A DNA stretch of 64,000 nucleotides, taken from assembly GCA_044892525.1 (NCBI GenBank), contig CM097885.1, positions 23,810,001 through 23,874,000 of the forward strand. Reading direction: 5' to 3'. Below are positions 2,208-54,983 of the stretch, piece after piece. The notes under the pieces were generated by a model. It searched no databases and was not told the origin of the DNA. It saw only the letters and a program-made list of their open reading frames with translations. A program made the translations under genes and the position numbers. The DNA comes from Schmidtea polychroa. Lineage: Eukaryota. Every line of letters begins with the position of its first letter. Position 1 is the first letter of the stretch.

Positions 2208-3107
2208 ATGGCATGCTATTCGCATAGAATTATTTACCATTCCTTTTTGATTCTCCAAAACAAGAAATTCCATTCAAATATATTTACTGACAAATCATTT
2301 ACAAGGGTAATCCAACTTATTGAGAAGACCTGTAGATGTCGAATCAAAACGTCTTTATTGAAAATCAACTTGAAATTCCCCCTGAAGAGTAAAATAACGG
2401 ACTTATCTGGATATATGATAACTGAAATATTTTATTATGAACCCTTCAATCAACACAACATTGCCATGAAAATGATTGACCAGTTGTTTAGAATTTCAGC
2501 TTTTGAAACTCATTATTCATGCAACAGATTAGCGTACAAAACGATCACCAAAAGAGACATGCAATTCTTAAGCTTAAGAATGAATTTTGCTGCCAACAAT
2601 TTGTCTCTTGACATGCACTTGAAAAACTTAAAAGGTCCAACTGCAAGACATTCAATGAAATTGTACGTTGTAAAAAAAGTAAGTTTAGTAGATGAAGAAG
2701 AAAAGAAGGCTTCATTGATAGAATGGGTCAGAGAAAGCTCTGAGAAAAATTCTATAACCCGAACGTCTTTAAAAGAGATGGTGAAAGAGCTTTATGGAAA
2801 TGATATAATGATGAGCCCTTCAAATGAAAGTGAAGAAGAGGCTAATATAGATGTAATTAATATCAGTGATCCAAAACAGATTAATAAAATTTCATCGGAT
2901 TCATTTCAATTTAATGTCATTATTGAGCCAGAATCTTCAAATCCCAATGAAGCTTTGAGAGCCAATGAAGATTCATTAAAACAAAATGAAAAGAAAGAAA
3001 AGTATGATTTTTCATTCGAAGAACAAACTTCGCTTCATGAGCATCAAAGTGGAAGTTCTGATGATGATAATAGTTGTAAATTTTGCAGTTTCGAAACAGG
3101 CAAATAA
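2208..3107 (+). CDS. Intronless 299-aa protein of unknown function; N-terminal half weakly resembles a TBP core, acidic/Ser-rich C-terminus
   Basis: Open 900-bp ORF in very AT-rich surroundings. FTRVIQ..NLKFPL..YYEP..IAMKMI..ISAF can be aligned by eye to TBP YARVVQ..DVKFPI..SYEP..LIYRMI..LLIF. Confidence 0.55.
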   Translation: MACYSHRIIYHSFLILQNKKFHSNIFTDKSFTRVIQLIEKTCRCRIKTSLLKINLKFPLKSKITDLSGYMITEIFYYEPFNQHNIAMKMIDQLFRISAFETHYSCNRLAYKTITKRDMQFLSLRMNFAANNLSLDMHLKNLKGPTARHSMKLYVVKKVSLVDEEEKKASLIEWVRESSEKNSITRTSLKEMVKELYGNDIMMSPSNESEEEANIDVINISDPKQINKISSDSFQFNVIIEPESSNPNEALRANEDSLKQNEKKEKYDFSFEEQTSLHEHQSGSSDDDNSCKFCSFETGK

Positions 3108-4049
3108 ATAATCTGACAATAGAATTGCTGTTGCACCTTTTTTATCGCGAATTTCAAACTAAATAGCCTTTTCTTACTGAAAAATGATTTCATTCTGGCG
3201 TAGGAGTGGGCTGTCCATAAGATTGAATGAGAGATTGCCAGATTATGGGCTGTTTAATGGGTTATGAGCAAGATGACCACCTCTCCGGTTTCACCGAGAG
3301 ATCTCTGTTTTTTTCAACATATCTCAGGTCTCCGATTGGGTCAAGCCATTTCTACAGTGTTTTTATATTAATTCGTTAAAAGTGACTTAAAATATTTTAA
3401 ATCAGATATTATACATTCATTTAGGTCCATAGAGTATAATTTTTGTTTATTTTGCCCCTCTTGCAAGAAGTCAGGACTAAAAATATGCGTTTAAATTTAA
3501 TAAATAATTTTTTTATTTTAATAAATTCTTTATCCAATTATAATCTTGAATAAAATGAAAATAATATAAATAAATTATCGGTTTTTTCTCAAATTCTCTG
3601 AGTTTCTTTGAGAGACTGTGATATTCTGATACCTACATTTTAGTGGGTTACAAGTAGCTAATATCTTAGCCTTTCCTGTTGCTTCCAGCGTAACCAAGAA
3701 TACAATTGTTGTCAATTACACTATGCTCGTTGTTGCTGCTTCGAGTAGGGAAAAAACTGAGAGCATTCATGTGCACTATAATCGTCAAATATTTCAACAG
3801 CAATAAAAAGCTTTTTGTCCGTTTTTTTACTTTTTAATTTAAACAAGAAATTAAATAAAATGAAAGAAATTCAGGTCTACTGCTTTTGAATATCATATTC
3901 TTATATAAAAACTGATTTTGACACAAAGTAAATAAAGAATTTTGATCAAAATGCGTGAAATATACCATGCAAACATAGCCTTAAGTTAACTTAAAATTTA
4001 AACACGTAAAAGCACCAAATAAACATTGAAATATACGAAATGAAACTAT

Positions 4050-4277
4050 TATATCCTTCGTTGAGGTTTTTGAGTGGAATTACAATGGTTCCGGTTTTAC
4101 TTCATTTATTTGATGCAGAACAGCTCCGACTGCTAAGTTCGATACGTCAGTAGTCAAAATGATTAAAAGGTCTGATTTTATGCATGCGAGTATTTTTATT
4201 TTTAATAGTGACTCTTTAGCTCGATCATAAGAGTGCAAAGCTTTGTTGCTCCATTTAACTTTTTGATTTTTTCCCAT
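4050..4277 (-). mobile_element. Ty3/Gypsy retrotransposon RT-connection/RNase H fragment
   Basis: VKWSNKALHSYDRAKESLL...ILTTDVSNLAVGAVLHQ...EPL*FHSK matches the Gypsy W..(AF)..K..L...LxTDAS..xGAVLxQ...PIAFxSK pattern. Confidence 0.85.
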
Positions 4278-4699
4278 TTGACCGATTTGTCATTAGTCCT
4301 AAAATTTCCAATATTTTAGATATGAATTTGTGAGATTTGGTGCGTTACAGGTGGATCACATTTTACCTTTTCGAGCTGTTTCCAGCATAACCCAAGATAC
4401 AAGGATGCTTTACCACTTAATACCCAATTGAGTGATCAACGTTGGAACTGTATCAAGTGGGTGAGTACCAGCAAGAAGTGAAGAAACATTTGTACAGTAT
4501 AATTTTCAGGTACTCGAGTAGGTCCATGGACTGCCGATGGAAGGCCTGTGTCCGACTTTCGATTGGTCCCTATCATATTAACCACTTTCCTTTATGGTTC
4601 AGCTACCATTATCAATTTCCTCCTTAATGAGTAACTATTGAACTCTTTGAATAGCTAACGATATTTATTATAAACAAAAATGAGATCACGTGTAAATTA

Positions 4700-51917: not shown

Positions 51918-52206
51918 CACCTGATTTGTATGATGTTCGGTGGTTTATGGATGTCCCAGGTAATTTAAACCCCTTTGCTTTAACTGTTTCCTTACTGCCT
52001 AAAAGACTATAACATTTCGGGCGTAAGAAAACCCATTCAGAATATCCTAATCCATTTCACTCATCTTTAAACTTCCCGATGACTGAGTCAAGGTTTCTAT
52101 TATACAAGGGGTGTGTTGGATCATAGTTCGATGTAACCAATAAATTATCTGAGATCGTCTGAGGTAATAATATTGATAATTTAAGATTTTTAATTTCGAG
52201 AAATGC
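51918..52206 (-). pseudogene. Polinton-type PolB C-terminal fragment (unit 3)
   Basis: Same sequence as 36241-36529. Confidence 0.88.
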
Positions 52207-54077
52207 TAAATATTTTACTCAATTACCTTTTGCTAAATATTATTTTAAATGACTAAAAATGACAAAGTTAACCAATAAATTAGTCGCTCGAAATAGGAAT
52301 ATTAACGAAATATATTACATAAATGGAAATATTTCTCACTAAATTACCTAAGAATTTCTAACTAATATATATGTGCCTTAATTAATATACCGTTGCGACC
52401 AATACCTTTACGACAAATACCGATAGGGGGACAAAATATCTTTGCGGATAAATATATATATATATATAAAAGAACTTACAATATGCTATGATCTTTATTG
52501 ATTAATTTGTTATATATATCAAGAGACTGATATTCATAAATTAACTAAAATTACTCAAATATATTATATTACCTAAATGTTTTTACTTAATGATACATTA
52601 AATGATCTTGTTTTTTTAATATACCTATGAGTCAATTTCTAAAATAATCATGTTTTTTATCATGCATTATTTGAATATAAATTTGCTGAATGTGAAATGA
52701 ACAAGTTTCTTGTTAAATTTCGTAAGAATTTAATAATTAATGATATTTTGCAGAAAGGTATATAAAATCTCTATGAATGTTTTCGTCAAAATAAATTAGT
52801 TCCTAAAAAACTCACAAAGAATTGCCCTATAAATTTTATTCGAAACTACCCCCAATTAAATGTTTTGTTGTTTTATTATTTTCACAAGTTTATTATTATT
52901 ATTTTTTTAAATCGGCATTAATTGAGAAGGAGATTTCGATTTCCACTTGTCTCATTGGAAAACCTTATAAAACAGGACTACACTAGAACAAAGATGTTAT
53001 TATGATTAATATTATTAATATTATTGTTATTATTACTATTATTATTATTATTTTCAAGATATTATTTATCAAAATAATATTATCAATATTAATATTATTA
53101 TTATTATTACTATTATTATTATAAAGTGATGATTTCTTGGTAGGAGCATTTATTATTTAAAACAATCATTTAAGCGTTTTGGTGCAAATAATGTATTTAA
53201 TGAAAAAGATTTTCAACCTCTTGGAATTTTCTTCCCGAAAATACATTTCTATCTTTCTTTTATTTTCTTTTTCTTAATTCTCATTGAGACCAATTATTAT
53301 TATTATTATTATTATTATTATTATTATTATTATTATTATTATTATTATTATTATTATTATTATTATTATTATTATTATTATTATTATTATTATTATTATT
53401 ATTATTGTTATTATTATCACAAAGGTACTTTTCACACCCAACATGTCTGAAAGGGTATATTATTACAAAGTATTATTAAATTCTGACCAATTAAAATCAA
53501 TGAAGTGGAAGGACAAAAATAAATTACGTTGCGGTGTTTTAAAACTTAAATATATTATTAAAACATATTTTGACGCCATTTTCATCAATTATTATTATTA
53601 TTATTATTATTATTATTATTATTATTATTATTATTATACCGAATTTTATGTCTGGTACAAATATTGTGGATTAAATTTATTTTAAAAATTGAGACATCCG
53701 AACTCAGATATAAGAGAAGTAAAAATTAAAAAAAATATAAAACAAAAATAAAATAATATTCAGAGTAAATATAAAAGTCAAATTAAAAATCTAAATTTAA
53801 TATAATTTATAACAATTAAAATTTTGGTAAAATAGTTTTGACATTTTTGTGCAGATAATAAAAATAAACTTTCAAATAAACTTTCAGTTATTTATTTGTT
53901 AAAACAAATTAAATAAAATTAAATCTGTGGCTGTTTTTTATGGGAAGTAATGAAGAAGTAATTAAAATTTTGTATTCTTAGTATAAATAAATAAAATAAC
54001 AGGAAACAAATAAAATAATAATCAATGTAAATATAAAAGTCAAATTATAAATCTAAATTTATTACATTTTATAAATA

Positions 54078-54983
54078 TTAATATTTTGGTAAAATAATTT
54101 TGACATTTTTGTGCAGAATCTTAGAAAAGGAGGCGATATTCGATTTTGACAATCCAATTGAATCTGCTAGCAATTTTGCGTCTACGTCGACATTTTTCAA
54201 GTCACAGACCAATTGAATGCAACATACCGCAATCAAAACGCTTCCTTTAATGCGAAATTCACTAATTTCACTTACATTTTTTACTGCTTCTTTTACAAGC
54301 TTTTCTATTTTGAAATCCGTCACGTCTAAATAATATAAAAATCTGCCAACGAGTAAATCTGGCTTGATTTCACGCGTTGGTCGTTTCAATGCAGTTTGGA
54401 TAAGTTTTAATAACTTTTTGAATTTCTTTTCATCAACCAGTGGACATTCGTTTAATATTTCTTTCGGCAGTCTCGGAACTTCATTGTCTACGCAAGCCAA
54501 ATATAGACATACGCAATTCAAGTTCGCTTTGTTTCGCTTGACACAGGCCTCTGATTTTGTAATTTCATGGAGTAGAGATACAGCTCGCGAATAAACATTT
54601 CTATCTACTTTTATTCTTTCACACAAATCTGCGATTTGTCGTTTCTGGGACGCCAATGACACTTCTTTGCTACTCTTAGTTGAAAGGAATTTAAATTTCG
54701 AATTTCCATTTTCATCTAGAAATCTGAGGTTAAAACCTGTTTGAACGGCAGTCGATGTTTGTCCATCTGTTTCTGACGTTTCCACCTCTCCAACTCGACA
54801 AGCGTCATGTCCATCCGTTCCATCGGATGCGAATGTTCTCCATTCACTAGAAGGATCAATCGCCCGTTCAACTACAACCAGACCACAAGCGGAACATATC
54901 ATATCTCCAGTTCGACAATCAGTTATTAGAACTCTATTTGGATGATATTTACAATGAACCATTTTCATATTGTCATTATTCAT
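54078..54983 (-). CDS. TFIIB: Transcription initiation factor IIB-like, intronless, copy 3
   Basis: Protein identical to copy 2. Confidence 0.93.
   Translation of the reverse strand: MNNDNMKMVHCKYHPNRVLITDCRTGDMICSACGLVVVERAIDPSSEWRTFASDGTDGHDACRVGEVETSETDGQTSTAVQTGFNLRFLDENGNSKFKFLSTKSSKEVSLASQKRQIADLCERIKVDRNVYSRAVSLLHEITKSEACVKRNKANLNCVCLYLACVDNEVPRLPKEILNECPLVDEKKFKKLLKLIQTALKRPTREIKPDLLVGRFLYYLDVTDFKIEKLVKEAVKNVSEISEFRIKGSVLIAVCCIQLVCDLKNVDVDAKLLADSIGLSKSNIASFSKILHKNVKIILPKY

Follow-up and report, generated by a model that had tools for sequence, protein, structure and literature searches.

A 64-kb stretch of Schmidtea polychroa DNA (C1:23,810,001-23,874,000, here called the window; the source genome is AT-rich and 781 Mb in size) holds sequences resembling three basal factors of RNA polymerase II (Pol II) transcription, TBP, TAF4 and TFIIB, among pieces of protein-primed DNA polymerase B (PolB). 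This raises the question of why they stand together. Our analysis shows, with high confidence, that the window is a mosaic, in which a Polinton (Maverick, adintovirus-type) of very high abundance has left two decayed copies among unrelated host paralogs of TAF4 and TFIIB. What looks like a cluster of basal factors is host genes and debris of virus-like transposons brought together by chance. The TBP gene of the Polinton, which belongs to a widespread group of such elements, together with a shared non-standard promoter box, suggests a built-in early-to-late switch of a herpesvirus-like kind.

The two TBP-like pseudogenes described in the original prediction are indeed present on the minus strand, match intact element TBP in tblastn, and carry stop codons across all three frames. 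Both relics keep the context of the element, relic 1 with orfB, TBP and a stub of the packaging ATPase, and relic 2 with orfB, orfA, TBP and the spacer beyond it, which matches the TBP-ATPase spacer of element locus L047 up to 27834. The features of the relics are:

14361..14531, minus strand: relic 1, fragment of orfB, a frequent neighbor of Polinton TBP (tblastn E 2e-6)
15174..15500, minus strand: relic 1, broken Polinton TBP gene (tblastn E 2e-15; stops in all frames)
15577..15585, plus strand: relic 1, box-like sequence one base off YATAAAC, 33 bases ahead of the ATPase start
15610..15693, plus strand: relic 1, packaging ATPase gene reduced to a 5' stub that starts at 15610 and stands head-to-head with TBP (E 4e-6, 69% identity over 29 aa)
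26251..26577, minus strand: relic 2, orfB (78% identity to L047 orfB; no Pfam match)
26860..27168, minus strand: relic 2, orfA, a small open reading frame (ORF) downstream of TBP (70% identity to L047 orfA)
27345..27759, minus strand: relic 2, broken Polinton TBP gene (tblastn E 8e-33; stops in all frames)
27826..27833, plus strand: relic 2, TATAAACA box that is still intact although its ATPase gene is lost; it runs into a microsatellite, (AAAC)n, with the repeat at 27829

The orfB product, possibly SSB-like by resemblance, matched no Pfam family and had no usable match in the structure atlas. Of four contig sets aligned with 27200-33700, X1, X8 and X9 had contigs across relic 2, and the TAF4-like gene was left nearly uncovered; their RNA status is a guess and they possibly derive from another population, and neither observation counts as evidence.

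A genome-wide search with PF00352 returned 2,998 TBP candidates, and 5,054 candidates were found for the packaging ATPase. The 150 TBP candidates that were scored were mostly near-identical intronless frames of ~160-190 codons, dispersed over the chromosomes. In all of the 12 10-kb genome stretches hand-picked from these 150, TBP lay head-to-head with the packaging ATPase, and beyond the ATPase came genes of core-like, integrase, penton-like, pX-like and major-capsid-like type. Pfam supports the labels of the ATPase (Pox_A32) and the integrase (rve), both of which were found in one cassette. A Polinton gene also adjoined TBP in 30 of 80 metagenome loci (ATPase in 23, integrase in 17, putative major capsid in 10, PolB in 6), many of the remaining 50 being short contigs, and orfB was present in 21 of the 80. 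Across the related loci, Pfam matched the Pox_A32 ATPase, the rve integrase, an adenain-type protease, protein-primed PolB and a PLA2-like protein. One search gave 89 relatives of the element TBP, and a wider one gave 629 at E up to 1e-10, cellular TBPs counted in. In a tree of 30 rows, the 19 element-type rows split from host and cellular TBPs with support of 100/99 (midpoint root only). Viral contigs, scanned with alignments of TBP and of the ATPase, gave no match, and among the matches listed for the TBP stretch of L041, no holder was recorded as RNA.

Several further features of these elements were observed. An (ATT)n tract, variable in length and perhaps an intron, splits the integrase genes of L041, L047, L048 and L050 at a single site. 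A short Met-Gly ORF with ATAAAC directly ahead of it lay between the core and integrase genes (L047:6544, L071:4657, L076:4505) and may encode a myristoylated virion peptide. Accessory genes near element TBPs included an E2 ubiquitin-conjugating enzyme, a dual-specificity phosphatase, a RING finger, a KilA-N and a leucine-rich repeat gene (sites L076:225-719, L063:4008-4316, L109:13315-13893, L126:7142-7999 and L089:1918-3327). A copy of the packaging ATPase was found at C1:23799928-23800560, 10 kb ahead of the window start.

The TAF4-like and TFIIB genes, together with the PolB pieces, make up the rest of the apparent cluster:

11..1305, plus strand: broken C-terminal part of a protein-primed PolB, a Polinton relic (Pfam DNA_pol_B_2 E 5e-16 for 86-700; tblastn pieces in several frames to 1305)
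30612..31994, minus strand: divergent host TAF4 paralog, 460 aa (CCAAT at -81; no ATAAAC box)
33222..37758: older partial copy of the tandem unit, without TFIIB
36224..36526, minus strand: C-terminal PolB scrap of ~100 codons, repeated at 43996-44298 and 51901-52203 (tblastn)
37763..59186: tandem array with a unit of ~7.9 kb, consisting of TFIIB, a scrap of a long terminal repeat (LTR) retroelement and a PolB scrap (self-blast, tblastn)
38274..39179, minus strand: divergent host TFIIB paralog, copy 1 (CCAAT at -83; no ATAAAC box)
46181..47086, minus strand: TFIIB paralog, copy 2 (99% identical to copy 1)
54078..54983, minus strand: TFIIB paralog, copy 3 (99% identical to copy 1)
62090..63979, plus strand: N-terminal part of another Polinton PolB, 629 open codons (tblastn E 5e-20 to L071 PolB)

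The three TFIIB genes of the original prediction are intact frames, but they represent one gene within the tandem unit, whose repeats are 99.1% identical over 13.5 kb. Likewise, PolB is present at both ends of the window and inside it, as had been stated, but the interior pieces are scraps of ~300 bases that were copied with the unit. The TFIIB protein has a Zn ribbon, a B-reader and cyclin repeats, of which Pfam scores the Zn ribbon (E 1.5e-10) and the first cyclin repeat only (TFIIB repeat, E 8e-9), and it matches solved TFIIB at E 1e-33. Seven near-identical full-length copies of this paralog lie at C1 23.85-24.19 Mb and six at C3 38.2-39.1 Mb (89-96% identity), along with fragments; intron-split TFIIB genes occur elsewhere in the genome. 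The best TFIIB-repeat match genome-wide, at C1:8.375 Mb, reads as BRF1-like. The ratio of nonsynonymous to synonymous substitution rates (dN/dS) between four C1 and five C3 copies was 0.23-0.35, and against the sixth C3 copy it was 0.89-0.92; the gene is thus a host paralog that has been amplified and is for the most part under purifying selection.

The TAF4-like frame is open as had been reported. It matches the Pfam TAF4 family (histone fold and C-terminal domain) only below the cut-off (E 0.024, 14.8 bits against 33), and the clear TAF4 of the genome with 29% identity over 141 aa (E 2e-13, BLASTP). Its matches in the genome were itself, a partial copy 155 kb off and the single Pfam-positive TAF4, which makes it near single copy. 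The original prediction had noted the lack of introns, but this is not diagnostic for TAF4, because the only Pfam-positive TAF4 of the genome is itself a single open frame of 499 codons.

The TBP relics are spread over the whole genome, which, for the TBPs, is one of the outcomes that the original prediction had named as refuting it. From the 2,998 TBP or 5,054 ATPase candidates, which are not copy numbers, a Poisson estimate gives ~300-800 windows of 64 kb with at least two such relics. Since this puts the grouping within chance, the presence of TBP relics beside the TAF4-like and TFIIB genes needs no special cause.

This reading is compatible with a separate role of the host genes, in which the paralogs of TAF4 and TFIIB would be regulated together and make up an alternative module for initiation, of germline type; we regard this as rather unlikely. 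Both frames are intact, dN/dS is 0.23-0.35 for the C1 against five C3 TFIIB copies, and both have CCAAT at a similar distance upstream, so that co-regulation by NF-Y is possible from the sequence; in flatworms, NF-Y has been linked to male germ cells, and germline roles are described for TBP, TAF and TFIIA variants (in the part of PMC4909293 covered here). However, CCAAT occurs at 2.2 per kb in the window, one C3 TFIIB copy is near neutral, and a second TAF4-like copy was not found at the C3 array. Because the C1 TFIIB copies are almost identical, the array beside the TAF4-like gene is also young, which counts against such a module. The CCAAT sequences of the two minus-strand paralogs lie at 32075-32079 (TAF4-like) and in the region of 39258-39262 (TFIIB), and CCAAT at a like distance was also observed in four of the six C3 TFIIB copies. 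The basal machinery appears broadly expanded in this genome, with TBP paralogs and several intron-split TFIIB paralogs; besides a canonical-looking TBP at C1:244.96 Mb there are at least five divergent host TBP paralogs, at sites that include C2:182.6 Mb, C2:132.3 Mb, C1:195.8 Mb and C1:41.96-42.0 Mb (L022-L030).

By profile and fold, the element protein is a TBP. Against the PF00352 cut-off of 22.9 bits, L045 scored 64.3 bits and the metagenome proteins of L071, L103, L109 and L126 scored 57-64 bits. The structure model (pLDDT 95.2) has the two-repeat saddle fold; in a fold search TBP entries made up all of the best matches, with Z 13.4 and rmsd 2.4 over 144 residues (Foldseek E 1e-9), and the first non-TBP title came at Z 6.5. 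The second repeat is complete. In a short form the first repeat is without its two helices, while a long form (L109, L120, L126, L132) keeps them by alignment. Long-form TBPs (L109, L115, L120, L126, L132) form a clade of their own with support of 100/99, and their elements also have the box described below.

In TBP, the acidic stirrup contacts TFIIB, and helix 2 serves the binding of TFIIA, Mot1 and TAF1. Among the parsed element proteins the acidic stirrup is kept, with E at the equivalents of yeast 186 (161/172) and 188 (169/172). The canonical TATA-reading residues are not kept: of the 172 proteins, 154 have R at the equivalent of yeast 194, 155 have C at that of 203, and 170 have N at that of 205. 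Other DNA-facing sites are fixed in a new state as well: in yeast numbering, T124 is replaced by M in 75 of 75 proteins, and N159 by S in 73 of 75. In yeast TBP, the changes I194F, V203T and L205V, located at the second base pair, allow binding of TGTA (as given in the covered part of PMC1636458).

A shared box, ATAAAC, was found upstream of the element genes. For the counts we used genes whose N-terminus was matched and for which 110 bases of upstream sequence were available, after dereplication at 85%. ATAAAC lay at -28 to -60 in 21 of 21 packaging ATPase genes (shuffled expectation 0.6) and 17 of 17 core genes (0.7), as well as in 10/14 exonuclease-like, 5/6 PLA2-like and 0/2 PolB genes. 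For the putative major capsid gene the count was 7 of 10, rising to 10 of 10 out to -110; for the penton-like, pX-like and protease genes it was 5/11, 2/8 and 1/6, rising to 10/11, 8/8 and 4/6. The TBP gene had the box in this range in only 2 of 49 cases (1.0 expected), and a canonical TATAWAW in 24 of 49 (4.5 expected). The box sorts by gene class: it stands ahead of packaging and virion genes and is mostly absent ahead of the TBP gene. It was never found reversed ahead of the ATPase (0/21), and the base preceding the core was T in 51, C in 17 and G in 1 of 69 boxes. Where the box fell within coding sequence at the ATPase end, the box codons were used in 7 of 7 cases, with 3.7 expected. In a second Polinton family of the same genome no TBP was present in the 7 kb seen, and the box stood ahead of none of six genes.

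We propose that host TFIID, acting on the canonical TATA, would transcribe the element TBP gene early, and that the element TBP would then bind the YATAAAC box and, through the kept acidic stirrup, recruit host TFIIB and Pol II, by which the late genes would be turned on. That host TFIID drives the TBP gene early and the element TBP reads the late promoters by way of host TFIIB is, judged by the sequences, probably correct. The short form, devoid of the first-repeat helices with their TFIIA, Mot1 and TAF1 sites, may be free of these host regulators and so may escape host control of TBP. A more specific version, that of a one-protein switch for late transcription in which, across a broad group of Polintons, a minimal TBP, reprogrammed at the yeast specificity residues, would replace TFIID at YATAAAC and recruit TFIIB, the short form having shed the regulator surface, is tentative and in our judgment falls a little short of an even chance.

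Several points weigh against this proposal. It is built on sequence, and binding, start sites and timing are predictions. The range of -28 to -60 was set after the upstream sequences had shown the common ATAAAC, and in pX, protease and penton-like genes the box often lies farther away, at -70 to -106. The box counts are not independent events because the elements are related, and for the TBP-free control only a single element, itself seen in part, was available. The split between gene classes is not clean, as 5 of 17 core genes also have TATAWAW (0.9 expected) and 4 of 49 TBP genes have ATAAAC within 110 bases. The residue counts come from the 172 parsed proteins of 229, with 57 left out as unparsed. 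The capsid, penton and core labels are putative and follow gene order; ORFs of the size and order to be expected for a double jelly-roll capsid and a penton are present, but none of these labels has a Pfam match. PolB and terminal repeats were unseen in the 10-kb stretches of the source genome. Finally, the odd base of the box is the C at coding-strand position 7, under the remodeled first repeat, while on the opposite strand the sequence is TGTTTAT plus a purine, where G stands at position 2, as it does for TBPm3. Because the TBPm3 positions contact base pair 2 and the odd base is at 7, the orientation of binding is ambiguous, and the opposite-strand reading would point TFIIB the wrong way unless the complex were built differently.

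The box might instead be a weak TATA for host TBP, with the element TBP doing something else, for example acting as a decoy that ties up TFIIB or as a repressor of early or host promoters. We consider this improbable. TATAAAC is the start in 51 of 69 boxes, the short form lacks the first-repeat helices, and wild-type TBP has been crystallized on a C(-25) TATA variant (by the entry title of 1qn3), a further point against our proposal. However, 17 of 69 boxes start with C, and the invariant new residues on the DNA face point to selected reading of DNA. The same elements also place a canonical TATA ahead of the TBP gene (24/49), and hence the variant box appears to be kept apart by gene class.

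The forkhead consensus is RYAAAYA. A forkhead site bound by a host Fox factor would fit ATAAACA, and A follows the core in 56 of 69 boxes; however, the box is strictly stranded, with no reversed copy ahead of the 21 ATPase genes, it keeps a TATA-like fixed distance, never below 31 bases for the ATPase and core genes, GTAAAC occurs in only 2 of 21, and a pyrimidine precedes the core in 68 of 69, which leaves this reading very unlikely.

That one large mobile element or endogenous virus bears TBP, TAF4 and TFIIB as a promoter-recognition kit, an option raised by the original prediction that holds insofar as the Polinton carries TBP, alone, is extremely unlikely: the three genes are neighbors and a PolB scrap sits within the TFIIB unit, but the kit is unsupported because the TAF4-like gene is near single copy, the TFIIB paralog is confined to two local arrays and TBP relics are genome-wide, so that copy numbers lie orders of magnitude apart; moreover, none of the 80 metagenome TBP loci had a match to TFIIB, TAF4 or the ORF at 2208, the sole Polinton match in 20 TFIIB and 3 TAF4 loci (3-4 kb) was one integrase scrap in two overlapping loci, and the ATAAAC box is absent upstream of the window TFIIB and TAF4-like genes.

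One further frame had been named as a possible TBP fold:

2208..3107, plus strand: host ORF, 299 aa, its N-terminal ~110 aa common to three other genomic loci

This ORF belongs to a four-member host family and shows no sequence or profile resemblance to TBP: it had no Pfam match, an hhalign probability of 0.34% against the TBP alignment, and only atlas matches below 0.9. Its low-confidence model (pLDDT 67) gave ferredoxin-like and KH domains as best fold matches (Z 6-8) and is possibly KH- or ferredoxin-like; no TBP entry was among the 50 fold matches listed, an absence that is no exclusion.

Elsewhere in the window, the segment 22096-24150 (minus strand) contains a 684-codon hAT transposase frame that looks intact and includes zf-BED and dimerization domains. 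An ORF of 282 codons at 29041-29889 (plus strand) has no Pfam match and may resemble a DNA-transposon N-terminus. The GC-rich segment 6559-7879 (~0.47) contains two minus-strand ORFs of 164 and 127 codons without Pfam match, and 6455-6643 has a repeat copy at 4376-4571.

With cellular TBP/TRF (PF00352) and TBPm3, the element TBP shares the two-repeat saddle, the YEPELFP stirrup and three of the four intercalating phenylalanines. It differs from cellular TBP/TRF in having no N-terminal extension and, in the short form, neither of the repeat 1 helices, and from cellular TBP in the nearly fixed equivalents of N159S, T124M, I194R, V203C and L205N and in a first intercalation site without a conserved Phe. 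A viral TBP fold is also found in nucleocytovirus TBP-like genes (BFVD matches), but the identity is only 8-22%. Nucleocytoviruses mostly encode their own RNA polymerase; none was found among 64 proteins scanned with Pfam.

The closest parallel is the late pre-initiation complex of beta- and gammaherpesviruses, with BcRF1, ORF24 or UL87 and a TATT box (in the covered parts of PMC4893493 and PMC7498053). Both systems combine a virus-encoded TBP-like protein with a variant TATA box ahead of structural genes. The herpesvirus protein, as described there, is a TBP mimic of large size with several domains; it depends on five other viral factors and binds the C-terminal domain (CTD) of Pol II, whereas the Polinton would rely on a bare TBP of ~145-170 aa with clear similarity to cellular TBP, the acidic stirrup kept, and the box YATAAAC, its role being predicted from sequence features. 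A six-protein complex with a CTD-binding N-terminal domain was not found in the elements. Their protein consists of just the TBP core, and we identified no gene for a partner.

The elements share the Pox_A32 ATPase, rve integrase, adenain-type protease, protein-primed PolB and PLA2-like gene with the Polintons, Mavericks and adintoviruses of Starrett et al. (2021; PMC8502044), where the legend of Figure 5 carries the label 'TBP' for at least one MELD virus. In the text covered, which excludes the figure and part of the supplement, that label is not discussed and no promoter motif is mentioned. The main text of other Polinton papers names neither TBP nor TATA, and their figures and supplements, outside this coverage, may name TBP-bearing elements. 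In the literature covered, which did not include Repbase and subscription journals, we found no description of the box, of a role for the TBP or of the timing of Polinton expression.

The thousands of 'TBP' matches in genomes of this kind are element genes, so copy number should be checked wherever basal factors seem to cluster. An altered-specificity TBP of ~150 aa would be an example of how the recognition of TATA can be rewired, and might find use as an orthogonal tool for transcription. If the proposed switch is true, it would be a natural orthogonal TBP-promoter pair and an independent parallel to the herpesvirus TATT system. The presence of a TBP and a matching box ahead of virion genes argues that these elements act as nuclear viruses with early and late phases, and the integrated copies would then run a timed viral program on host Pol II.

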